In this document: in pieces, positions 1,657-53,912 of the stretch
How the letters are laid out: the number at the start of each line of letters is the position of its first letter
Position numbering within the stretch: the first letter of the stretch is position 1
Assembly: GCF_056712565.1 (NCBI RefSeq)
Contig: NZ_CM160072.1
DNA length: 64,000 bases
Strand: one strand, 5' to 3'
Translations under genes and position numbers: made by a program
Notes under the pieces: generated by a model
The model's database searches: none
Told to the model about the DNA's origin: nothing
What the model saw: only the letters and a program-made list of their open reading frames with translations

Positions 1657-2430
1657 ATGAAACCTCGTCAGCGTCAGGCCGCCATTCTGGAGTATCTACA
1701 AAAGCAGGGTAAATGCTCGGTTGAAGAATTGGCGCAATACTTTGACACCACAGGCACAACCATTCGCAAAGATCTGGTCATTCTGGAACATGCCGGAACC
1801 GTCATTCGTACTTATGGCGGCGTGGTGTTGAACAAAGAGGAATCCGATCCGCCTATCGATCATAAAACGCTTATCAACACCCACAAAAAAGAGCTGATTG
1901 CAGAAGCTGCCGTTGGTTTTATTCATGATGGCGACTCAATAATTCTTGATGCTGGCAGTACCGTGTTGCAGATGGTGCCCCTGCTCTCGCGCTTTAATAA
2001 CATCACGGTGATGACCAACAGCCTGCACATCGTCAATGCGCTATCCGAACTGGATAACGAACAAACTATACTGATGCCAGGCGGAACATTTCGCAAAAAA
2101 TCGGCCTCATTTCACGGGCAACTGGCAGAGAATGCCTTCGAGCATTTCACCTTCGATAAATTGTTTATGGGCACCGACGGCATCGATCTCAATGCGGGCG
2201 TAACCACCTTTAACGAGGTCTATACCGTCAGTAAGGCGATGTGTAATGCCGCGCGCGAAGTGATTTTGATGGCTGACTCATCGAAGTTTGGTCGTAAAAG
2301 CCCCAACGTGGTTTGTAGTCTTGAAAGCGTCGATAAGCTGATTACCGACGCAGGTATCGATCCAGCGTTTCGTCAGGCGCTGGAAGAAAAAGGGATCGAC
2401 GTGATCATAACCGGAGAGAGCAATGAGTGA
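1657..2430 (+). CDS. srlR: DeoR-family glucitol operon repressor
   Basis: 257-aa ORF with N-terminal DeoR-type HTH and C-terminal sugar-phosphate sensor domain; matches recalled SrlR. Confidence 0.92.
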
Positions 2431-3388
2431 AGCACTACTGAACGCGGGACGTCAGACGTTAATGCTGGAGTTGCAGGAAGCAAGCCATTTACCGGAACGT
2501 CTGGGCGATGATTTCGTTCGCGCCGCCAATATCATCCTGCACTGCGAAGGCAAAGTGGTGGTTTCGGGAATTGGCAAATCGGGCCACATTGGTAAGAAAA
2601 TCGCCGCAACGCTTGCCAGCACCGGCACACCGGCTTTTTTTGTCCATCCGGCAGAAGCACTGCACGGCGATCTGGGGATGATTGAAAGCCGCGATGTGAT
2701 GCTGTTTATCTCTTATTCCGGTGGCGCGAAGGAACTGGATCTCATTATTCCGCGTCTGGAAGACAAATCTATCGCGCTGCTGGCAATGACCGGAAAACCG
2801 ACGTCACCGCTGGGCCTGGCGGCGAAAGCGGTGCTGGATATCTCCGTAGAGCGCGAAGCCTGCCCGATGCACCTTGCGCCGACCTCCAGCACCGTGAATA
2901 CCCTGATGATGGGCGACGCGCTGGCGATGGCGGTCATGCAGGCGCGCGGATTTAATGAAGAAGATTTTGCCCGCTCCCACCCAGCCGGGGCACTGGGCGC
3001 TCGCTTGCTGAACAAAGTGCATCATCTTATGCGTCGTGACGATGCCATCCCGCAGGTGGCGTTAACCGCCAGCGTGATGGACGCAATGCTGGAACTTAGC
3101 CGCACCGGTTTAGGTCTGGTGGCAGTGTGCGATGATCAACGACTGGTGAAAGGCGTCTTTACCGACGGTGATTTACGTCGCTGGCTGGTTGGCGGCGGCG
3201 CACTCACCACGCCAGTCAATGAAGCGATGACGGTCGGCGGCACCACGTTGCAATCGCAAAGCCGTGCCATCGACGCCAAAGAAATCCTGATGAAACGCAA
3301 AATCACCGCCGCACCGGTAGTGGATGAAAACGGCAAACTCACCGGCGCAATTAACCTGCAGGATTTCTATCAGGCCGGGATTATTTAA
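2423..3388 (+). CDS. gutQ: D-arabinose 5-phosphate isomerase (SIS domain plus CBS pair)
   Basis: 321-aa ORF overlapping the srlR stop by 8 nt; SIS-domain motif ([14 protein letters not shown]) and C-terminal CBS region; matches recalled GutQ. Confidence 0.92.
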
Positions 3389-4899
3389 TCCTTCAGCCCC
3401 AGACGTTTCGCCAGCCGATGCAGGTTGGCGACGTCGGTTTCCAGCATCCGCGCACAGGCGGCCCAGTTGTGATGATTTTGCGCCAGTGCCTGACGAATGG
3501 TTTCACGCTGGAACGCTTCTGTCGCTTCACGCAGGTTTTGCTTAACAACGGGCACCGCCGCCGCTTCTGGCGGCGGCAACGTCACCTCAGGAAAAGCAAA
3601 ATGTTGCGCCTCAAGAATCACTTCATCGCCGCTGCGGGTGGCTCTCGACAATACTACCGCCCGATGAATAGCATGTTCCAGTTCGCGCACGTTTCCCGGA
3701 AAATTGTAGTGTTGCAGTAAATTTCGCGCTCCGGCACTTAATACCACGCGGGAGAGCCCCAGCCGCAAACGACACTGCTCGCAGAAATACCCCGCCAGCA
3801 GAATGACATCATCGCCCCGCTCACGCAGCGGCGGCACTGAAAGTGGAAACACGCTCAGGCGGTGGAACAAGTCAGCGCGAAATCGCCCTGCCAGTACCTC
3901 TTCGCGTAAGTCACGGTTAGTCGCCGCCAGCACGCGCACATCGACCCGCAAACTGCGGTCATCGCCAACGCGTTGAATATCGCCATACTGCAACACCCTC
4001 AGCAGCTTGGCCTGCAATGCCAACGACAACTCGCCGATCTCATCGAGAAACAGCGTGCCGTTATCCGCCATTTCAAACTTCCCGCTGCGGTTACTGATAG
4101 CACCAGTAAACGCCCCTTTCACATGCCCGAACAACTCACTTTCCGCCACACTTTCCGGCAGTGCGGCACAGTTGAGATAGACCAGCGGATTCACCGCCCG
4201 TGGCGAGGCTTCATGAATCGCTTTCGCCACCAGCTCCTTACCGGTTCCCGTCTCACCGCTAATTAAAACGTTGAGATCGGATGCCGCCACAATCTCAATC
4301 TCTTTTTTCAATTGCGTCATGCCAGGGGACAAACCAATCATCTGCGTCTGTTTCACCGCTTCAAACGGCGCGGCATCGCCTGGCAGCATATTCTGGCTTT
4401 CCAGTTGTTCAATCAGCAATGCATTGCTTAACGCTCCCGCCGCCAGTGCGGCAATCAGCCGTAGCTCTTCGTCGCTGAAAACATCGAACTGATCGGGCTG
4501 CATCCCGTCGAGCGTCAAGGCACCGATCAGGTTTTGCCCGGCAAACAACGGCAAACCAACGCAGGCGTGAACCTTCAGACTCTCCTGCCCTGGAATCAAA
4601 CCGTCATAAGGATCGGGCAATTCGCTGTCTGCGGGAAAGCGCACCACATCACCCGCGCGGGCAATCGCTTCCAGCCGTGGATGACCTTCCAGCGCAAAGC
4701 GTCTACCGAGTACATCCTTCGCCAGCCCGTCGATGGCAAGCGGAATAAACTGCCGCGAGTCGTAACGTAGCAACGCAGACGCATCGCACTCCAGCACCTG
4801 ACGCAGCGTGGTGATCAGGCGCTGAAAACGATCCTGATGACCAATCCCACGCTGCAATTCGATGGCGATATTCGCCAGCACATCAACGGAAAAACTCAT
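3385..4899 (-). CDS. norR: Sigma54-dependent nitric-oxide-responsive transcriptional activator (GAF-AAA+-HTH)
   Basis: 504-aa ORF with sigma54-interaction AAA+ motifs ([14 protein letters not shown]) and C-terminal HTH; divergent from norVW. Confidence 0.93.
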
Positions 4900-4911
4900 C
4901 TTTGCCTCACT

Positions 4912-4967
4912 GTCAATTTGACTATAGATATTGTCATATCGACCATTTTATTGATAGTCATTTTGAC
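4912..4967. promoter_or_regulatory. Three NorR enhancer sites (GT-N7-AC) in the norR-norV intergenic region
   Basis: GTCAATTTGAC (4912-4922), GTCATATCGAC (4933-4943), GTCATTTTGAC (4957-4967): three inverted-repeat GT-N7-AC motifs, the established NorR binding architecture. Confidence 0.85.
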
Positions 4968-5022
4968 TACTCATTAATGAGCACAATTTTATTTATAGAG
5001 TAAAAACAATTAGATAAAAAAC

Positions 5023-5038
5023 TGGCACGCAATCTGCA
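5023..5038 (+). promoter_or_regulatory. Sigma54 (-24/-12) promoter of norVW
   Basis: TGGCACGCAATCTGCA: GG and GC elements at canonical spacing, ~48 nt upstream of the norV ATG and downstream of the NorR sites. Confidence 0.85.
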
Positions 5039-5085
5039 ATTAGCAAGACATCTTTTTAGAACACGCTGAATAAATTGAGGTTGCT

Positions 5086-6525
5086 ATGTCTATTGTGGTG
5101 AAAAATAACATTCATTGGGTTGGTCAACGTGACTGGGAAGTGCGTGATTTTCACGGTACAGAATATAAAACGCTGCGCGGCAGCAGCTACAACAGCTACC
5201 TCATCCGCGAAGAAAAAAACGTGCTGATCGACACCGTCGACCATAAATTCAGCCGCGAATTTGTGCAGAACCTGCGTAATGAAATCGATCTGGCGGATAT
5301 CGATTACATCGTAATTAACCATGCTGAAGAGGACCACGCCGGGGCGCTGACCGAACTGATGGCACAAATTCCCGATACGCCGATCTACTGTACTGCCAAC
5401 GCTATCGACTCGATAAATGGTCATCACCATCATCCGGAGTGGAATTTTAATGTAGTGAAAACTGGCGACACGCTGGATATCGGCAACGGCAAACAACTCA
5501 TTTTTGTCGAAACGCCAATGCTGCACTGGCCGGACAGCATGATGACTTACCTGACAGGCGACGCGGTGCTGTTCAGTAACGATGCTTTCGGTCAGCACTA
5601 CTGCGACGAGCATCTGTTCAACGATGAAGTGGATCAGACTGAGCTTTTCGAGCAGTGCCAGCGTTACTACGCCAATATCCTGACGCCGTTCAGCCGCCTG
5701 GTAACGCCGAAAATTACCGAGATCCTGGGCTTTAACTTGCCAGTCGATATGATAGCGACCTCTCACGGCGTGGTATGGCGCGATAACCCGACGCAAATTG
5801 TCGAGCTGTACCTGAAATGGGCGGCGGATTATCAGGAAGACAGAATCACCATTGTCTACGACACCATGTCGAATAACACCCGCATGATGGCTGACGCTAT
5901 CGCCCAGGGGATTGCGGAAACCGACCCACGCGTGGCGGTGAAAATTTTCAACGTCGCCCGAAGCGATAAAAACGAAATCCTGACCAATGTCTTCCGCTCA
6001 AAAGGCGTACTGGTCGGCACTTCTACGATGAATAATGTGATGATGCCGAAAATCGCCGGGCTGGTGGAGGAGATGACCGGATTACGCTTCCGTAACAAAC
6101 GCGCCAGCGCTTTCGGCTCTCACGGCTGGAGCGGCGGTGCGGTGGATCGTCTTTCCACGCGCCTGCAGGATGCGGGTTTCGAAATGTCGCTTAGCCTGAA
6201 AGCCAAATGGCGACCAGACCAGGACGCTCTGGAGTTATGTCGTGAACACGGTCGCGAAATCGCCCGTCAGTGGGCGCTCGCGCCGCTGCCACAGAGCACG
6301 GTGAATACGGTGGTTGAAGAAGAAACCTCTGCCGCCACGACGGCTGACCTCGGCCCACGGATGCAATGCAGCGTCTGCCAGTGGATTTACGATCCGGCAA
6401 AAGGCGAGCCAATGCAGGACGTTGCGCCAGGAACGCCGTGGAGTGAAGTCCCGGATAACTTCCTGTGCCCGGAATGCTCTCTCGGCAAAGACGTCTTTGA
6501 CGAACTGGCATCGGAGGCAAAATGA
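5086..6525 (+). CDS. norV: Anaerobic nitric oxide reductase flavorubredoxin
   Basis: 479-aa ORF with metallo-beta-lactamase-like di-iron domain, flavodoxin domain and C-terminal rubredoxin Cys pairs (CSVC...CPEC); matches recalled NorV. Confidence 0.94.
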
Positions 6526-23900: not shown

Positions 23901-23917
23901 TGGCACAATTATTGCTT
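23901..23917 (+). promoter_or_regulatory. Sigma54 promoter of the hyp operon
   Basis: TGGCACAATTATTGCT ~30 nt upstream of the hypA ATG. Confidence 0.8.
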
Positions 23918-25436: not shown

Positions 25437-26557
25437 TGCGTTTTGTTGATGAATATCGCGCGCCGGAACAGGTAATGCAGTTAATTGAGCATCTGCGCGA
25501 ACGTGCTTCACATCTCTCTTACACCGCCGAACGCCCTCTGCGGATTATGGAAGTGTGTGGCGGTCATACCCACGCCATTTTTAAATTCGGCCTCGACCAG
25601 TTGCTACCGGAAAACGTTGAGTTTATCCACGGTCCGGGTTGCCCGGTGTGCGTACTGCCAATGGGTAGAATCGACACCTGCGTGGAGATTGCCAGCCATC
25701 CGGAAGTCATCTTCTGTACCTTTGGCGATGCCATGCGCGTACCAGGGAAACAGGGGTCGCTGTTGCAGGCAAAAGCACGCGGTGCCGATGTGCGCATCGT
25801 TTACTCGCCAATGGATGCGTTAAAACTGGCGCAGGAGAATCCAACCCGCAAAGTGGTGTTCTTCGGCTTAGGTTTTGAAACCACCATGCCGACCACCGCC
25901 ATCACGTTGCAACAGGCAAAAGCCCGCGATGTGCAGAATTTTTACTTCTTCTGCCAGCACATTACGCTCATCCCAACACTGCGCAGTTTACTTGAAGAGC
26001 CGGATAACGGTATCGACGCGTTTCTTGCGCCCGGTCACGTTAGTATGGTTATCGGCACTGATGCCTATAATTTTATCGCCAGCGATTTTCATCGTCCGCT
26101 GGTGGTCGCTGGTTTCGAACCCCTTGATCTACTTCAAGGCGTGGTGATGCTGGTGGAGCAGAAAATAGCGGCCCATAGCAAGGTAGAGAATCAGTATCGT
26201 CGGGTGGTGCCGGATGCCGGTAACCTGCTGGCGCAACAGGCAATTGCTGATGTGTTCTGTGTCAACGGCGACAGCGAATGGCGCGGCTTAGGCGTGATTG
26301 AATCTTCTGGCGTGCACCTGACGCCGGATTATCAACGATTCGATGCCGAAGCACATTTCCGCCCGGCACCGCAGCAGGTCTGCGATGACCCGCGTGCGCG
26401 TTGTGGTGAAGTATTAACGGGCAAATGTAAGCCGCATCAATGCCCGCTGTTTGGTAACACCTGTAATCCTCAAACCGCGTTTGGTGCGCTGATGGTTTCC
26501 TCCGAAGGAGCGTGCGCCGCGTGGTATCAGTATCGTCAGCAGGAGAGTGAAGCGTGA
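25436..26557 (+). CDS. hypD: Hydrogenase maturation factor HypD
   Basis: 373-aa ORF with conserved CGxH and CPVC motifs. Confidence 0.93.
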   Translation: MRFVDEYRAPEQVMQLIEHLRERASHLSYTAERPLRIMEVCGGHTHAIFKFGLDQLLPENVEFIHGPGCPVCVLPMGRIDTCVEIASHPEVIFCTFGDAMRVPGKQGSLLQAKARGADVRIVYSPMDALKLAQENPTRKVVFFGLGFETTMPTTAITLQQAKARDVQNFYFFCQHITLIPTLRSLLEEPDNGIDAFLAPGHVSMVIGTDAYNFIASDFHRPLVVAGFEPLDLLQGVVMLVEQKIAAHSKVENQYRRVVPDAGNLLAQQAIADVFCVNGDSEWRGLGVIESSGVHLTPDYQRFDAEAHFRPAPQQVCDDPRARCGEVLTGKCKPHQCPLFGNTCNPQTAFGALMVSSEGACAAWYQYRQQESEA

Positions 26558-27564
26558 ATAATATCCAACTCGCCCACGGTAGCGGCGGCCAGGCGATGCA
26601 GCAATTAATCAACAGCCTGTTTATGGAAGCCTTTGCCAACCCGTGGCTGGCAGAGCAGGAAGATCAGGCCCGTCTTGATCTGGCGCAGCTGGTAGCGGAA
26701 GGCGACCGTCTGGCGTTCTCCACCGACAGTTACGTCATTGACCCGCTGTTCTTTCCTGGCGGTAATATCGGCAAGCTGGCGATTTGCGGCACCGCCAATG
26801 ACGTTGCGGTCAGTGGCGCTATTCCGCGCTATCTCTCCTGTGGCTTTATCCTCGAAGAAGGATTGCCGATGGAGACACTGAAAGCCGTAGTGACCAGCAT
26901 GGCAGAAACCGCCCGCGCGGCAGGCATTGCCATCGTCACTGGCGATACTAAAGTGGTGCAGCGCGGCGCGGCAGATAAACTGTTTATCAACACCGCTGGC
27001 ATGGGCGCAATTCCGGCGAATATTCACTGGGGCGCACAGACGCTAACCGCAGGCGATGTATTGCTGGTTAGCGGTACACTCGGGGACCACGGGGCGACTA
27101 TCCTTAACCTGCGTGAGCAGCTGGGGCTGGACGGCGAACTGGTCAGCGACTGCGCGGTACTAACGCCGCTTATTCAGACGCTGCGTGACATTCCCGGCGT
27201 GAAAGCGCTGCGTGATGCCACCCGTGGTGGTGTAAACGCGGTGGTTCATGAGTTCGCGGCAGCCTGCGGTTGTGGTATTGAACTTTCAGAAGCGGCACTG
27301 CCAGTTAAACCTGCTGTGCGCGGCGTTTGCGAACTGCTGGGACTGGACGCCCTTAACTTTGCCAACGAAGGCAAACTGGTGATCGCCGTTGAACGCAACG
27401 CAGCAGAGCAAGTGCTGGCGGCGTTACATTCCCATCCATTGGGAAAAGATGCGGCGCTGATTGGCGAAGTAGTAGAACGTAAAGGTGTTCGTCTTGCCGG
27501 TCTGTATGGCGTGAAACGAACCCTCGATCTACCGCACGCCGAACCGCTTCCGCGTATATGCTAA
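26554..27564 (+). CDS. hypE: Hydrogenase maturation carbamoyl dehydratase HypE
   Basis: 336-aa ORF; PurM-like fold with C-terminal Cys; overlaps hypD stop. Confidence 0.92.
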   Translation: MNNIQLAHGSGGQAMQQLINSLFMEAFANPWLAEQEDQARLDLAQLVAEGDRLAFSTDSYVIDPLFFPGGNIGKLAICGTANDVAVSGAIPRYLSCGFILEEGLPMETLKAVVTSMAETARAAGIAIVTGDTKVVQRGAADKLFINTAGMGAIPANIHWGAQTLTAGDVLLVSGTLGDHGATILNLREQLGLDGELVSDCAVLTPLIQTLRDIPGVKALRDATRGGVNAVVHEFAAACGCGIELSEAALPVKPAVRGVCELLGLDALNFANEGKLVIAVERNAAEQVLAALHSHPLGKDAALIGEVVERKGVRLAGLYGVKRTLDLPHAEPLPRIC

Positions 27565-27637
27565 TAAAATTCTAAATCTCCTATAGTTAGTCAATGACCT
27601 TTTGCACCGCTTTGCGGTGCTTTCCTGGAAGAACAAA

Positions 27638-29716
27638 ATGTCATATACACCGATGAGTGATCTCGGACAGCAAGGGTTGTTCGACATCACTCGGACACTA
27701 TTGCAGCAGCCCGATCTGGCCTCGCTGTGTGAGGCTCTTTCGCAACTGGTAAAGCGTTCTGCGCTCGCCGACAACGCGGCGATTGTGTTGTGGCAAGCGC
27801 AGACTCAACGTGCGTCTTATTACGCATCGCGTGAAAAAGACACCCCCATTAAATATGAAGACGAAACTGTTCTGGCACACGGTCCGGTACGCAGCATTTT
27901 GTCGCGCCCTGATACGCTGCATTGCAGTTACGAAGAATTTTGTGAAACCTGGCCGCAGCTGGCCACAGGTGGGCTATACCCCAAATTTGGTCACTATTGC
28001 CTGATGCCACTGGCGGCGGAAGGGCATATTTTTGGTGGCTGTGAATTTATTCGTTATGACGATCGCCCCTGGAGCGAAAAAGAGTTCAATCGTCTGCAAA
28101 CATTTACGCAGATCGTTTCTGTCGTCACCGAACAAATCCAGAGCCGCGTCGTTAACAATGTCGACTATGAGTTGTTATGCCGGGAACGCGATAACTTCCG
28201 CATCCTGGTCGCCATCACTAACGCGGTGCTTTCCCGCCTGGATATGGACGAACTGGTCAGCGAAGTCGCCAAAGAAATCCATTACTATTTCGACATTGAC
28301 GATATCAGCATCGTCTTACGCAGCCACCGTAAAAACAAACTCAACATCTACTCCACTCACTATCTTGATAAACAGCATCCCGCTCACGAACAGAGCGAAG
28401 TCGATGAAGCCGGACCCCTCACCGAACGCGTCTTCAAAAGTAAAGAGATGCTGTTGATTAATCTCCACGAGCGGGACGATTTAGCCCCCTATGAACGCAT
28501 GTTGTTCAACACCTGGGGCAACCAGATTCAAACCTTGTGCCTGTTACCGCTGATGTCTGGCGACACTATGCTGGGCGTGCTGAAACTGGCGCAATGCGAA
28601 GAGAAAGTCTTTACCACTACCAATCTGAATTTACTGCGCCAGATTGCCGAACGTGTGGCAATCGCTGTCGATAACGCCCTCGCCTATCAGGAAATTCATC
28701 GTCTGAAAGAACGGCTGGTTGATGAAAACCTCGCCCTGACCGAGCAGCTCAACAATGTTGATAGTGAATTTGGCGAGATTATTGGCCGCAGCGAAGCCAT
28801 GTACAGCGTACTTAAACAAGTGGAAATGGTGGCGCAAAGTGACAGTACCGTTCTGATCCTCGGTGAAACTGGTACAGGTAAAGAGCTGATTGCCCGCGCG
28901 ATCCATAATCTCAGTGGGCGTAATAATCGCCGCATGGTCAAAATGAACTGCGCGGCGATGCCTGCCGGATTGCTGGAAAGCGATCTATTTGGTCATGAGC
29001 GTGGGGCTTTTACCGGTGCCAGCGCTCAGCGCATTGGTCGTTTTGAACTGGCGGATAAAAGCTCACTATTCCTCGATGAAGTGGGCGATATGCCGCTGGA
29101 GTTACAGCCGAAGTTGCTGCGTGTATTACAGGAACAGGAGTTTGAACGTCTCGGCAGCAACAAAATCATTCAGACGGACGTACGTTTAATTGCCGCGACT
29201 AACCGCGATCTGAAAAAAATGGTCGCCGACCGAGAGTTCCGTAGCGATCTCTATTACCGCCTGAACGTATTCCCGATCCACCTGCCGCCACTACGCGAGC
29301 GTCCGGAAGATATTCCGCTGCTGGCGAAAGCCTTTACCTTCAAAATTGCCCGTCGTCTGGGGCGCAATATCGACAGCATTCCTGCCGAGACGCTGCGCAT
29401 CCTGAGCAACATGGAATGGCCGGGCAACGTGCGTGAGCTGGAAAACGTCATCGAGCGCGCGGTATTGCTAACACGCGGCAACGTGCTGCAGCTGTCATTG
29501 CCAGATATTGCTTTACCAGAACCTGAAACGCCGCCTGCCGCAACGGTTGTCGCCCAGGAGGGCGAAGATGAATATCAGTTGATTGTTCGCGTGCTGAAAG
29601 AAACAAACGGCGTGGTTGCCGGGCCTAAAGGCGCTGCGCAACTTCTGGGGCTGAAACGCACGACTCTGCTGTCACGAATGAAGCGACTGGGAATTGATAA
29701 ATCGGCATTGATTTAA
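27638..29716 (+). CDS. fhlA: Formate hydrogenlyase transcriptional activator (sigma54-dependent, GAF-AAA+-HTH)
   Basis: Start at MSYTPMSDLGQQ (692 aa) rather than the ORF-track 704 aa; AAA+ sigma54-interaction motifs ([14 protein letters not shown]). Confidence 0.92.
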   Translation: MSYTPMSDLGQQGLFDITRTLLQQPDLASLCEALSQLVKRSALADNAAIVLWQAQTQRASYYASREKDTPIKYEDETVLAHGPVRSILSRPDTLHCSYEEFCETWPQLATGGLYPKFGHYCLMPLAAEGHIFGGCEFIRYDDRPWSEKEFNRLQTFTQIVSVVTEQIQSRVVNNVDYELLCRERDNFRILVAITNAVLSRLDMDELVSEVAKEIHYYFDIDDISIVLRSHRKNKLNIYSTHYLDKQHPAHEQSEVDEAGPLTERVFKSKEMLLINLHERDDLAPYERMLFNTWGNQIQTLCLLPLMSGDTMLGVLKLAQCEEKVFTTTNLNLLRQIAERVAIAVDNALAYQEIHRLKERLVDENLALTEQLNNVDSEFGEIIGRSEAMYSVLKQVEMVAQSDSTVLILGETGTGKELIARAIHNLSGRNNRRMVKMNCAAMPAGLLESDLFGHERGAFTGASAQRIGRFELADKSSLFLDEVGDMPLELQPKLLRVLQEQEFERLGSNKIIQTDVRLIAATNRDLKKMVADREFRSDLYYRLNVFPIHLPPLRERPEDIPLLAKAFTFKIARRLGRNIDSIPAETLRILSNMEWPGNVRELENVIERAVLLTRGNVLQLSLPDIALPEPETPPAATVVAQEGEDEYQLIVRVLKETNGVVAGPKGAAQLLGLKRTTLLSRMKRLGIDKSALI

Positions 29717-29760
29717 CAGATGTGGTTATACTCGATCAACATTCAATGAAAGGAGGCAGT

Positions 29761-30189
29761 ATGGCAGTTTCAGCAAGAAATCAATTAACCGGAACAGTTA
29801 GCGCAGTAGCAATGGGCGCGGTGAATGATGAAGTAGAACTGACGCTGGCAGGTGGTGCAAAGCTGGTGGCAATTGTGACTCACAGCAGCCAGCAAGCGCT
29901 GGGTCTGGCGAAAGGGAAAGAAGCGATTGCCCTGATTAAAGCCCCGTGGGTCACGCTGGCAACGGAAGACTGTGGACTGAAATTCTCTGCTCGCAACCAG
30001 TTTGCTGGCAGCGTGTCGACAATCACCGAAGGCGCAGTGAACGCCACTGTCCATATCAAAACGGATGCGGGTTTTGAAATTGTGGCAGTGGTAACAAATG
30101 AAAGTCAGGATGAAATGAAACTCACCACTGGCTCGCGCGTTATTGCATTGATCAAAGCATCAGCCATCCTGATTGCCACCAAAGCGTAA
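29761..30189 (+). CDS. Two-domain Mop/TOBE molbindin-like protein (putative molybdate/tungstate-binding)
   Basis: Start at MAVSARNQLTG, 8 nt downstream of an AAGGAGG Shine-Dalgarno; two tandem ~70-aa repeats each beginning SARNQ(L/F)(T/A)G(T/S)V, characteristic of TOBE/Mop domains. Not recalled between fhlA and ygbA in K-12. Confidence 0.7.
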   Translation: MAVSARNQLTGTVSAVAMGAVNDEVELTLAGGAKLVAIVTHSSQQALGLAKGKEAIALIKAPWVTLATEDCGLKFSARNQFAGSVSTITEGAVNATVHIKTDAGFEIVAVVTNESQDEMKLTTGSRVIALIKASAILIATKA

Positions 30190-30227
30190 GCGCCGTATTT
30201 GCCGGAGAGTATGGCTCTCCGGCAGAT

Positions 30228-30572
30228 TTATTTCTTTGGACGATATTTTTCTGGCAACTCCGGCACCGGACGCTTGTCATCGATGAGATGACGCACGGTT
30301 AAGATCGGATGACGCCACAGCATTCTCGGCCCAACCCAACGCATAATCTGTTTCATCTCTTCACGCTTTGCAGGCTGGTAACAGTGCACCGGACACTGCT
30401 TACAGGCTGGTTTCTCTTCGCCGAACACACATTTATCCAGCCGCTTTTGCGCGTAAGCAAACAACGCCTCGTAATGCTCCGGCTCTGCTGACGCCTGCGG
30501 GCATTTCGCTTGATAAAGATCGATCATTTTTTTAATCGTCAGTTTTTCACGAGAGATACGCTTGCCGGACAT
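30228..30572 (-). CDS. ygbA: Nitrosative-stress-induced Cys-rich protein YgbA
   Basis: 114-aa ORF with CxxC-rich core (CKQCPVHC) matching recalled YgbA. Confidence 0.85.
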   Translation of the reverse strand: MSGKRISREKLTIKKMIDLYQAKCPQASAEPEHYEALFAYAQKRLDKCVFGEEKPACKQCPVHCYQPAKREEMKQIMRWVGPRMLWRHPILTVRHLIDDKRPVPELPEKYRPKK

Positions 30573-30588
30573 GCTGCCTCCATACTCT

Positions 30589-30612
30589 TAAGGTGCATTT
30601 ATATTACAACTT
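30589..30612 (-). promoter_or_regulatory. Candidate NsrR operator overlapping the ygbA promoter
   Basis: AAGGTGCATTTATATTACAACTT: AT-rich imperfect inverted repeat resembling the NsrR consensus (AAnATGCATTT-n-AAATGCATnTT), ~20-40 nt upstream of the ygbA ATG. Confidence 0.5.
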
Positions 30613-30857
30613 AATTTTAAAGGGGACTATGTCTCTGAAGGAGGAGGTTTCTTCAACCGACGAATTTGGCGATCTTGTTTCATCGTCATCACGCAAAAGC
30701 TGCAAAGCAGCATTTTTCGCGGAACCGACATCAAGAACTCACCTTTCGCGTCTTCCCCTGAAATGATTAACTCCGGTATCATGTGCGCCTTATGTGATTA
30801 CAACGAAAATAAAAACCATCACACTACATTTAACATCAGGGAGCCGGACTTAACCCC

Positions 30858-33419
30858 ATGAGTACAATAGAAAATTTCGACGCCCATACGCCCATGATGC
30901 AGCAGTATCTCAAGCTGAAAGCCCAGCATCCCGAGATCCTGCTGTTTTACCGGATGGGCGACTTTTATGAACTGTTTTATGACGACGCAAAACGGGCATC
31001 GCAACTGCTGGATATTTCACTGACCAAACGCGGTGCTTCAGCGGGAGAGCCAATCCCGATGGCGGGGATTCCCTACCATGCGGTGGAAAACTACCTCGCC
31101 AAACTGGTGAATCAGGGCGAATCCGTCGCTATTTGTGAACAGATTGGCGATCCGGCGACCAGCAAAGGGCCGGTTGAGCGCAAAGTTGTCCGTATCGTTA
31201 CGCCGGGCACCATCAGCGATGAAGCGCTGTTGCAGGAACGTCAGGACAACCTGCTGGCGGCTATCTGGCAGGACAGTAAAGGTTTCGGCTACGCAACGCT
31301 GGATATCAGTTCCGGTCGTTTTCGCCTGAGCGAACCGGCAGACCGCGAAACGATGGCGGCAGAACTGCAACGTACGAATCCAGCGGAATTACTGTATGCG
31401 GAAGATTTCGCCGAGATGTCGCTGATTGAAGGTCGCCGCGGCCTGCGTCGTCGCCCGCTGTGGGAGTTTGAAATCGACACCGCTCGCCAGCAATTGAACC
31501 TGCAATTTGGCACCCGAGATCTGGTCGGTTTTGGTGTGGAGAACGCACCACGCGGACTTTGTGCTGCCGGTTGTCTGTTGCAGTATGCGAAAGATACCCA
31601 ACGCACGACCCTGCCGCATATTCGTTCTATCACTATGGAACGTCAGCAGGACAGCATCATTATGGATGCCGCGACGCGTCGTAACCTGGAAATTACTCAG
31701 AACCTGGCCGGCGGTGCGGAAAATACGCTGGCTTCAGTGCTCGACTGCACTGTAACGCCGATGGGCAGCCGTATGCTGAAACGCTGGCTGCATATGCCAG
31801 TGCGCGATACCCGCGTGTTGCTTGAGCGCCAGCAAACTATTGGCGCATTGCAGGATTTCACCGCTGAGCTACAGCCGGTACTGCGTCAGGTCGGCGACCT
31901 GGAACGTATTCTGGCGCGTCTGGCGTTGCGTACCGCTCGCCCGCGCGATCTGGCCCGTATGCGTCATGCCTTCCAGCAACTGCCGGAGTTGCGTGCGCAG
32001 TTAGAAAATGTCGATAGTGCACCGGTACAAGCGCTGCGTGAGAAGATGGGCGAGTTTGCCGAACTGCGCGACCTGCTGGAGCGAGCAATCATCGACACGC
32101 CGCCGGTGCTGGTACGCGATGGTGGTGTTATTGCGACTGGTTATAACGAAGAACTGGATGAATGGCGTGCGCTGGCCGACGGCGCGACCGATTATCTGGA
32201 ACGTCTGGAAGTCCGCGAGCGTGAACGTACCGGCCTGGACACGTTAAAAGTTGGCTTTAATGCTGTGCACGGCTACTACATTCAAATCAGCCGTGGGCAA
32301 AGCCATCTGGCACCAATCAACTACATGCGCCGCCAGACGCTGAAAAACGCCGAGCGTTACATTATTCCGGAGCTGAAAGAGTACGAAGATAAAGTTCTCA
32401 CCTCAAAAGGCAAAGCGCTGGCACTGGAAAAACAGCTTTATGAAGAGCTGTTCGACCTGTTGCTGCCGCATCTGGAAGCGTTGCAACAGAGCGCGAGCGC
32501 GCTGGCAGAACTTGATGTGCTGGTTAACCTGGCGGAGCGGGCCTATACCCTGAACTACACCTGCCCGACCTTTATTGATAAACCTGGCATTCGTATTACC
32601 GAAGGTCGCCATCCAGTGGTTGAACAGGTACTGAACGAACCGTTTATCGCTAACCCGCTAAACCTGTCGCCACAGCGCCGCATGTTGATCATCACCGGTC
32701 CGAACATGGGGGGTAAAAGTACCTATATGCGCCAGACCGCGTTGATTGCGCTGATGGCGTATATCGGCAGTTACGTCCCGGCGCAAAAGGTCGAGATTGG
32801 GCCGATCGATCGCATCTTTACCCGCGTAGGTGCCGCGGATGATCTGGCTTCCGGACGTTCAACCTTTATGGTGGAGATGACCGAAACCGCTAATATTCTG
32901 CATAACGCCACCGAATACAGTCTGGTGTTGATGGACGAGATTGGGCGCGGAACGTCCACTTACGATGGCCTGTCGCTGGCATGGGCGTGTGCGGAAAATC
33001 TGGCAAATAAGATCAAAGCGTTGACGCTGTTTGCTACCCACTATTTCGAGCTGACCCAGTTACCGGAGAAAATGGAAGGCGTCGCCAACGTGCATCTCGA
33101 TGCACTGGAGCACGGCGACACCATTGCCTTTATGCATAGCGTGCAGGATGGCGCAGCGAGCAAAAGCTACGGCCTGGCGGTTGCAGCTCTGGCGGGTGTG
33201 CCAAAAGAGGTTATTAAGCGCGCACGGCAAAAACTGCGTGAGCTGGAAAGCATTTCGCCGAACGCCGCTGCTACGCAAGTGGATGGTACACAAATGTCTT
33301 TGCTGTCCGTACCGGAAGAAACTTCGCCTGCGGTCGAGGCATTGGAAAACCTCGACCCGGATTCACTGACTCCGCGTCAGGCGCTGGAATGGATTTATCG
33401 CTTGAAGAGTCTGGTGTAA
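30858..33419 (+). CDS. mutS: DNA mismatch repair protein MutS
   Basis: 853-aa ORF; mismatch-binding N-terminus, Walker [11 protein letters not shown]-terminal dimerisation region. Confidence 0.96.
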
Positions 33420-53552: not shown

Positions 53553-53705
53553 CTACTTCTTCGATTCGTAAGCGAGAACTGCCTTAAACTCCATACCACG
53601 TTCTCTGATACTCAACTCACACAACGAGTCGCCTACCATCAACGTGAATCCCAGTACTGTACAACACAGTACGATGATTGCCACAAGGGCATATTTTGTC
53701 AGCAT
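53553..53705 (-). CDS. Hok/Gef-family type I toxin (HokE-like small membrane peptide)
   Basis: 50-codon [53 protein letters not shown]: hydrophobic N-terminal helix, conserved Cys in SLCEL, C-terminal AYE motif; GGAGG Shine-Dalgarno 7 nt upstream; GC-rich hairpin just 3' of the stop. Close by eye to recalled chromosomal HokE. Confidence 0.8.
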
Positions 53706-53912
53706 GTCTTGCCTCCCTGCAAAGAAGAGACTAACATCCGAATTGCTTAGGTTCGAACGTAGGCCTCAGGTTGATAGAAATATCGCCTGGGGCTTTTGTC
53801 CATCTGGAACCTCGCGAATGCTTAACGCCAGACAGCCTCAAGCACCCAATGCCATTCTATACCTGTTAATTCTCCCTGCGACGTTCTCGTTTAAATGCCG
53901 GAATGCTGCTCG

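Follow-up and report, generated by a model that had tools for sequence, protein, structure and literature searches.

We propose that the DNA between fhlA and ygbA analysed here encodes a ModG-type molbindin that buffers molybdenum and tungsten (Mo/W), and that its gene is the ancestral tail gene of the hyp–fhlA locus, since lost in K-12. We consider this the best explanation overall and hold it with good confidence.

A 142-codon gene lies in the spacer between fhlA and ygbA

The window, as we call the whole 64-kb stretch of DNA that was analysed, differs by 4 mismatches and 1 gap from the chromosome of ATCC 11775, the type strain of Escherichia coli, which amounts to an identity of 99.992%. 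Positions 29717–30227 of the window are exactly the spacer between fhlA, the stop codon of which ends at 29716, and ygbA, which is on the minus strand and ends at 30228. The coding sequence of the molbindin gene lies within this spacer at 29761–30189 on the plus strand, running from an ATG at 29761 to a TAA at 30187–30189 (142 codons plus the stop). The product has the RefSeq accession WP_000301062.1, and in ATCC 11775 it is annotated as a 'TOBE domain-containing protein'. A Shine–Dalgarno sequence, AAGGAGG, is seen at 29750–29756 on the plus strand, 4 nt before the ATG, and a GGAGG or GGAGA core is found at the same place in the 25 orthologous loci of our spacer comparison. The open reading frame and strong ribosome-binding site described in the original prediction are thus both present, and the spacer coordinates and annotation agree with its placement of the gene directly downstream of fhlA and beside hyc/hyp.

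Mechanical listing of open reading frames opens this frame further upstream, at a GTG at 29722, which would give a protein of 155 residues. Judged from sequence comparison, it is the ATG at 29761 and not this GTG that is the true start, because the ATG is the start given in RefSeq and because nearly all of 53 homologues are 142 residues long and begin with M[AST][VI]SARNQ. The GC content of the gene (51%) is native-like and matches that of the neighbourhood.

Our literature search found no study of the molbindin gene that adjoins fhlA. RefSeq annotates the gene, and it belongs to a family of known fold and mode of binding; this particular molbindin is uncharacterised. The names used in the databases are generic, being 'transporter', 'molybdopterin-binding protein' or 'molybdate transport system regulatory protein'.

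Both domains of the protein have predicted oxyanion sites

The two tandem TOBE/Mop repeats that had been predicted from the sequence alone were recovered by profile search. Pfam PF03459 (TOBE) matched in two stretches, with an E-value of 8.8e-35 and a score of 119 bits against a cut-off of 22.3, and NCBIfam TIGR00638 ('Mop') also matched in two stretches, with an E-value of 4.1e-42. The assignment of two TOBE domains is far beyond chance, and by these profiles it is confirmed. No other domain was found by Pfam or NCBIfam in the 142 residues. Domain 1 (29761–29967, plus strand) comprises residues ∼1–69, with the Pfam stretch covering residues 4–66 and the TIGR00638 stretch residues 2–69. Domain 2 (29977–30180, plus strand) comprises residues ∼73–140 and corresponds to the second Pfam and TIGR00638 stretches; the single-domain Mop/Tub structures align to this half from residue 73 or 74 to residue 139.

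Candidate ligand residues were identified by mapping onto the Tub sites and onto ModE/ModG alignments. The type-1 oxyanion site of Tub is formed by the backbone of A20, V21 and N22 on a three-fold axis, and the type-2 site by S4, R6, K60 and A61 together with S40 of the neighbouring subunit (PMC11980592). For domain 1, the predicted site residues are S4, R6, A20-V21-N22, T40, S43, K60 and A61. For domain 2, they lie 72 residues further on, at S76, R78, A92-V93-N94, T112, S115, K132 and A133. The equivalents of the type-2 residues (Ser4, Arg6, Ser/Thr40, Lys60 and Ala61) are therefore found in both domains, and each is identical in 50–53 of the 53 homologues. The Ala-Val-Asn loop of the type-1 site is likewise found in both domains and is conserved in 51–53 of the 53. 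As regards the choice of ligand, nothing in the sequence separates a preference for molybdate from one for tungstate.

An AlphaFold2 model of the monomer, made with a 25-sequence alignment, had a pLDDT of 96.3. By all of the in silico features, the protein is of the ModG type, with both domains predicted to be competent for binding. It is very probably a molbindin that binds molybdate or tungstate.

The gene is absent from K-12-type strains of E. coli

For E. coli K-12 MG1655, the stop codons of fhlA and ygbA are only 36 bp apart and there is no gene between them. Both the annotation and the alignment of MG1655 show that K-12 lacks a gene at this position, characterised or otherwise, in line with the original prediction. 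Pairwise and multiple alignments place the segment that is absent from K-12-type E. coli at 29717–30189 of the window (∼473 bp). The endpoints of the deletion lie just after the TAA of fhlA and just after the TAA of the molbindin gene, with a 3-nt TAA microhomology, and K-12 keeps a diverged homologue of the downstream hairpin right after fhlA. The convergent neighbour, ygbA (30228–30572, minus strand), encodes 114 residues here compared to 117 in K-12, owing to a different 3′ end where the deletion left its scar.

The comparison of fhlA–ygbA spacers that the original prediction had suggested gave two principal states in E. coli. The molbindin gene was carried by 1892 of 5426 complete genomes, always as one chromosomal copy and in 1889 cases covering at least 80% of the query, and the K-12-type junction was present in 3502. 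Together, these two states account for 5394 of the 5426 genomes.

Five reference strains were checked by hand. ATCC 11775, SMS-3-5 and 042 are carriers of the gene, and K-12 MG1655 and O157:H7 Sakai are non-carriers. We take the carriers to belong to phylogroups B2, F and D, respectively, and the non-carriers to phylogroups A (MG1655) and E (Sakai). For these five strains the pattern is consistent with the gene having been lost once, at the base of the A/B1/C/E clade, and one ancient deletion of ∼473 bp would have taken the gene from the lineage of E. coli to which K-12 and O157:H7 belong. We rejected the alternative to loss in K-12, namely horizontal gain of the gene by B2 strains, because the gene has the same position in E. 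albertii, Citrobacter, Klebsiella/Raoultella, Kluyvera, Kosakonia and others, and because the GC content is native-like and the K-12 junction retains a homologous terminator.

The position of the gene is conserved in other enterobacteria

Searching with the protein gave 2759 relatives at E ≤ 1e-10. Orthologues of 142 residues with 80–96% identity were found in E. albertii, E. fergusonii, Citrobacter, Klebsiella, Raoultella and Kluyvera, and also in Pluralibacter, Yokenella, Lelliottia, Kosakonia, Pantoea and some Salmonella. The loci were then scanned using one genome per species, which returned 49 loci. The order hypE–fhlA–molbindin gene, all on the same strand, was found in 36 of these species-level loci, representing at least 11 enterobacterial genera, and the spacer between fhlA and the gene was 31–101 nt in the 25 loci measured. 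The recurrence of this order in 36 of the 49 loci indicates that the gene is ancestral at the 3′ end of fhlA and that the K-12-type arrangement is derived.

The gene is also found in other settings. Where fhlA has been lost, as in Phytobacter and one Kosakonia (L045, L050 and L057), the gene is kept after hypE, and what is left of the final codons of fhlA precedes it. The gene has also been kept by Raoultella sp. BIGb0138 and Enterobacter sp. BIGb0383, at loci from which hyc, hyp and fhlA are absent, with asc-like PTS and glycosidase genes directly before it; of fhlA, only a short tail is left in BIGb0138. The species-representative scan gave no locus for Salmonella or K. pneumoniae. Some Salmonella serovars have a copy at another site, in an island, ∼1 kb from a divergently oriented gene block that includes genes for a molybdoenzyme (Oxidored_molyb) and a cytochrome b. 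This island copy bears a "GGCTATACT...GAAAGGAGGCAGT" leader that is the same as in Citrobacter and Escherichia. For Serratia, Edwardsiella and Cedecea there were no informative neighbours, the gene standing among unrelated housekeeping genes.

When the E. fergusonii gene was compared to that of E. coli, dS was saturated. The possibility that the molbindin gene alone is anomalously diverged in E. fergusonii was rejected, since fhlA and ygbA, at 80–81% nucleotide identity, are equally diverged. All three genes have ∼77–81% nucleotide identity to E. coli, compared to 94% for hypE, and from this the whole fhlA–molbindin–ygbA block appears to have been exchanged as one unit, with the gene travelling with fhlA.

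Signals for expression of the gene

Immediately upstream of the molbindin gene is fhlA (27638–29716, plus strand), assigned from the annotation of the near-identical record and the Pfam architecture of its orthologues. Its product responds to formate and, as a sigma-54 activator, switches on the formate regulon. The 44-nt spacer that separates it from the molbindin gene (29717–29760, plus strand) has no terminator-like site according to a terminator scan. Further upstream, the sigma-54 promoter match TGGCACAATTATTGCT at 23901–23916 (plus strand) lies upstream of hypA, which begins ∼30 nt downstream of the match; it is the only match with 0 mismatches in the 64 kb. Between this match and the hairpin downstream of the molbindin gene, the scan found only one weak terminator-like site on the plus strand, inside fhlA. 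The sigma-54 match is presumed to be the start of a hypABCDE–fhlA–molbindin read-through transcript, from which we infer co-transcription of these genes. Read-through from the formate/FhlA-dependent hyp promoters would be the simplest expectation for expression of the molbindin gene.

Downstream of the gene, a predicted intrinsic terminator hairpin at 30197–30227 has a 14-bp stem and a T-rich tail, and would terminate the plus-strand transcript. Its calculated stability (dG −23.3 kcal/mol, z −4.46) was not matched by any of 200 shuffled sequences. As the hairpin abuts the stop codon of ygbA, it is probably bidirectional.

Control by sigma-70, sigma-54, ModE or FNR sites of the gene's own was considered and rejected on the basis of negative scans. 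A consensus sigma-70 scan of 29300–30900 found no promoter; a pattern search found no sigma-54 match on the plus strand directly upstream of the gene; there was no match to the ModE-operator-like pattern TATAT-N7-TAYAT near the gene; and no FNR-like site was found upstream of it. The sole weak lead is a −10-like TATACT at 29727–29732 (plus strand), a candidate for a promoter of the gene's own. In the spacer comparison, several genera have TATACT or TATAAA ∼30 nt before the ATG. That the fhlA tail and the spacer have been kept repeatedly suggests a promoter there that belongs to the gene itself.

Proposed role and alternative explanations

We propose that the protein is a cytoplasmic molbindin of the ModG type, which would assemble as a trimer equivalent to the Mop/Tub hexamer. 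By homology with these proteins, the trimer would bind up to eight molybdate or tungstate oxyanions. The G-A-V-N loops would make up two type-1 sites on the three-fold axis, and the S-A-R-N, T-x-x-S and K-A motifs would make up six type-2 sites buried at the domain interfaces. In this way it would store or buffer Mo/W in the cytoplasm. The gene would be an ancestral tail-end member of the enterobacterial hypABCDE–fhlA locus. Its transcripts probably arise by read-through from the formate/FhlA-dependent hyp promoters, and some probably start at an additional weak promoter that belongs to the gene and lies in the spacer or the 3′ end of fhlA. Expression of hyp–fhlA would then bring more Mo-holding capacity when the molybdoenzyme FDH-H and formate hydrogenlyase (FHL) are made.

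Maximal expression of fdhF and hyc requires molybdate and ModE in addition to FhlA and formate (PMC3149613); therefore, a molybdate-holding protein at this locus would be sensible. Mo/W buffering for FHL was the role put forward in the original prediction, and the adjacency to fhlA in 36 of the 49 loci makes a link to FHL plausible on grounds of synteny. A role exclusive to FHL is unlikely, because the gene persists where fhlA or the FHL cluster has been deleted and is found on its own in Serratia, Cedecea, Edwardsiella and some Salmonella. The gene is dispensable: ∼65% of E. coli genomes are without it and yet FHL works, as in K-12. It is often lost and not bound to FHL. The function is probably general homeostasis or buffering of Mo/W in the cytoplasm rather than one specific to FHL; supplying or buffering Mo for FDH-H/FHL may be the main physiological role, although we rate this at somewhat below an even chance.

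On a narrower reading, the protein would be an accessory dedicated to the formate regulon, sensing Mo/W or delivering Mo, and K-12 would have lost it; this seems to us improbable. If this were true, most FHL-bearing enterobacteria and the B2/D/F E. coli would couple molybdate to FDH-H/FHL synthesis in a manner unlike K-12, and Mo retention and tungstate sensitivity would also differ from K-12.

As an alternative, the molbindin would be chiefly a sensor of Mo and not a passive store, adjusting through protein–protein contact the control that FhlA exerts over the formate regulon (or ModE/MoeA-dependent control). The tight and ancient linkage of the gene is to a regulator gene, fhlA, rather than to structural genes, the dependence of hyc/fdhF transcription on molybdate is established (PMC3149613), and the same di-Mop module forms the sensing domain of ModE. 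However, the protein has neither a DNA-binding domain nor any other interaction domain, and K-12 has molybdate-dependent control of hyc without it. The gene also outlasts the loss of fhlA and is stand-alone elsewhere, and both domains keep full ligand sites like storage proteins, unlike ModE. We therefore regard this role as very unlikely.

It is equally doubtful that the protein acts chiefly as a sink, sequestering tungstate from the molybdenum cofactor and so protecting FDH-H and other molybdoenzymes. Mop-family proteins do bind tungstate as well as molybdate, there are structures of the ModE di-Mop domain and of MopII with tungstate bound, and Tub, which is closely related in fold, serves as a tungstate store in a gut bacterium (PMC11980592). 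Against this, no residue signature for tungstate over molybdate is known or was seen here, and the capacity of a small buffer would be limited in the face of a sustained tungstate influx.

Selection on the gene

Three E. coli alleles have 5–9 coding-site differences from the window, all of them synonymous, and encode an identical protein; WP_000301062.1 is also annotated in SMS-3-5 and 042. Between genera, dN/dS for the molbindin gene was 0.015–0.064. The E. coli and Raoultella proteins have 89.5% amino acid identity, compared to 83.5–84% for FhlA, HypE and YgbA. The gene is thus subject to strong purifying selection, across at least 11 enterobacterial genera. Among the copies examined, no more than two were disrupted. 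The first is in FDAARGOS_1285, where an IS1-associated deletion truncates the gene and also takes ygbA through rpoS. The second, an apparent pseudogene of 113 residues in Enterobacter sp. EA-1, was set aside as an assembly artefact, hypE and fhlA also being in frame-shifted pieces there.

The remaining explanation, a functionless relic or mis-called open reading frame at a recombination-prone locus, could draw on the absence of the gene from so many E. coli genomes and from many related species, and on the variation of the fhlA–mutS–rpoS region between strains, but it is extremely improbable and effectively refuted by the selection data, with no non-synonymous changes among diverged E. coli alleles, dN/dS values of 0.02–0.06 across genera, a fixed length of 142 residues, a conserved ribosome-binding site, ligand residues that are invariant or nearly so, and truncations limited to one IS1-mediated deletion and one frameshift-ridden assembly.

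Implications for E. coli

The handling of molybdenum by E. coli and the regulation of its FHL have been worked out almost wholly in K-12. If the gene is the Mo/W-buffering molbindin that we propose, K-12 would be a deletion mutant for the species' only stand-alone cytoplasmic molbindin, the gene for which is found in ∼35% of complete E. coli genomes, including those of the type strain, 042 and SMS-3-5. The B2/D/F lineages include many extra-intestinal pathogens and probiotic strains. The protein could affect the response to tungstate, which poisons enterobacterial molybdoenzymes, and, where Mo is limiting, how the metal is held for molybdoenzymes such as FDH-H and nitrate reductase. It is an easy experimental target, being small and soluble, with strains that naturally have or lack the gene and a solved homologue. 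Both the kind of protein and its function are as might be expected and the advance would be incremental; it is mildly interesting that the K-12 model is without the molbindin and that the gene has an ancient tie to fhlA.

Comparison with known molbindins and related proteins

Among proteins that contain TOBE domains, the most distant comparison is with the ABC ATPases ModC and WtpC, for which the homology is weak and confined to one domain (Foldseek TM 0.71 for Methanosarcina acetivorans ModBC, 3d31). Identity as such an ATPase was rejected, as the protein has no ATPase domain and only the C-terminal 60–70 positions of the NCBIfam profiles match, giving 47–49 bits against cut-offs of 285–440.

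The single-domain molbindins, namely Clostridium pasteurianum MopII (1gug), Eubacterium limosum Tub (9beb) and Sporomusa ovata Mop (1fr3), are each ∼70 residues long. Each half of the protein aligns to the single-domain Mop/Tub proteins, with E-values of 2e-9 to 3e-5 and a TM of 0.84–0.91 on the target, and the contact residues of Tub have the same numbers as here (S4, R6, A20–N22, K60 and A61). Membership of this hexameric class was rejected, because there are two domains per chain. With two Mop domains fused in one chain, a trimer would stand in for the Mop/Tub hexamer.

The C-terminal di-Mop domain of E. coli ModE (1h9r, 1h9s, 1o7l and 1b9m) has the same tandem Mop fold, with a TM of 0.88–0.90 and 33–36% identity, and domain 1 of the molbindin carries the motifs of the ModE sensing domain (SARNQ ... 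T..S ... KA). The second Mop domain of ModE is degenerate at the site motifs, with NADNQ in place of SARNQ, whereas both domains of the molbindin are intact. The molbindin also differs in being without the N-terminal DNA-binding domain of ModE. A ModE-type regulator was rejected, since the alignment is only to ModE residues 125–260 and the score with NF007957 is 88 bits against a cut-off of 369.

The genetic setting of modG in Azotobacter vinelandii is different from that described here. According to the literature cited in PMC11980592, expression of modG is mediated by ModE, and ModG contributes to synthesis of the FeMo-cofactor of nitrogenase. The gene described here comes after fhlA, in enterics that do not fix nitrogen, and has no ModE-operator-like sequence nearby; its neighbours at the locus are hyp/fhlA and ygbA, not mod transport genes. 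As a protein, A. vinelandii ModG (1h9j, 1h9k and 1h9m) has, like the molbindin, two Mop/TOBE domains in ∼140 residues and nothing else. The two align end to end, over residues 1–140, in a phmmer comparison with 1h9j (E = 5e-33). When the model of the molbindin was searched with Foldseek, the three ModG entries came out on top, with a TM of 0.94–0.95, an rmsd of 1.3–1.4 Å and 48% identity, and the ModE di-Mop domain was the next match after them. The residues of the type-1 and type-2 oxyanion sites are retained in both domains of the molbindin.

Divergence, alternative location and truncation of the molbindin gene

Comparison of the E. fergusonii loci (L007 and L008) with the E. coli window over the region 26554–30572 showed that divergence jumps abruptly within the hyp–fhlA locus. 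The DNA identity of hypE is 93.8%, whereas that of fhlA, the molbindin gene and ygbA is only 77–81%. Judged from these sequence identities, the break suggests that in one lineage a distant allele has replaced the stretch from fhlA to ygbA.

In some serovars of Salmonella enterica (L003 and L004, at about 2000–6500 of the locus), a molbindin orthologue with 89% amino acid identity was found away from fhlA. Here it lies in an island, adjoining genes for TetR, DUF417, cytochrome b and Oxidored_molyb (YedYZ/MsrPQ-like) proteins, and in L004 it also adjoins an IS21 IstB fragment. The Salmonella orthologue retains the Escherichia/Citrobacter-type leader sequence.

In E. coli FDAARGOS_1285 (NZ_CP070152.1; L009, locus 4045–4975), the molbindin gene is cut off after ∼46 codons by an IS1A element, which is followed directly by nlpD. 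Therefore ygbA, mutS, the mutS–rpoS variable region and rpoS were lost in one IS1-associated deletion, which should have left this strain a naturally occurring double mutant in mutS and rpoS.

A candidate −10 element in the fhlA–molbindin spacer

The spacer between fhlA and the molbindin gene contains a candidate −10-like hexamer (TATACT at 29727–29732 in the window), which recurs as TATACT or TATAAA among the equivalent spacers of L013–L043, loci from other genomes. In several genera the hexamer lies ∼30 nt 5′ of the molbindin start codon, frequently inside GGCTATACT, and outside it the spacers have diverged. No −35 element matching the hexamer was seen in the spacers of the window or L013–L043.

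Other features of the window and of related strains

Between ygbA and mutS, a 44-amino acid hypothetical protein (WP_000611937/8/32) is annotated by RefSeq in D/F-type strains (L010, L011, L012, L068 and L069); the ATCC 11775 record carries no annotation of it. The rpoS gene of the window (42370–43362, minus strand) is intact, with 330 codons and a stop. In the near-identical ATCC 11775 RefSeq record (CP033092.2), rpoS is marked as a pseudogene with its C-terminus missing. The two sequences differ by four mismatches and one gap over 64 kb, and at the start of rpoS their coordinates are already offset by 1 nt.

A chromosomal hok/sok toxin–antitoxin locus lies on the minus strand directly between iap and cysH, an interval from which cas genes are absent: sok matches its Rfam model at 53690–53847 (112 bits, E = 1.2e-24), and the Hok/Gef gene occupies about 53553–53706. 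The K-12 type I-E CRISPR repeat gave no match anywhere in the window with up to three mismatches allowed. In Sakai, SMS-3-5 and 042, the same hok gene is found at the iap–cysH site, adjoining a full type I-E cas operon.
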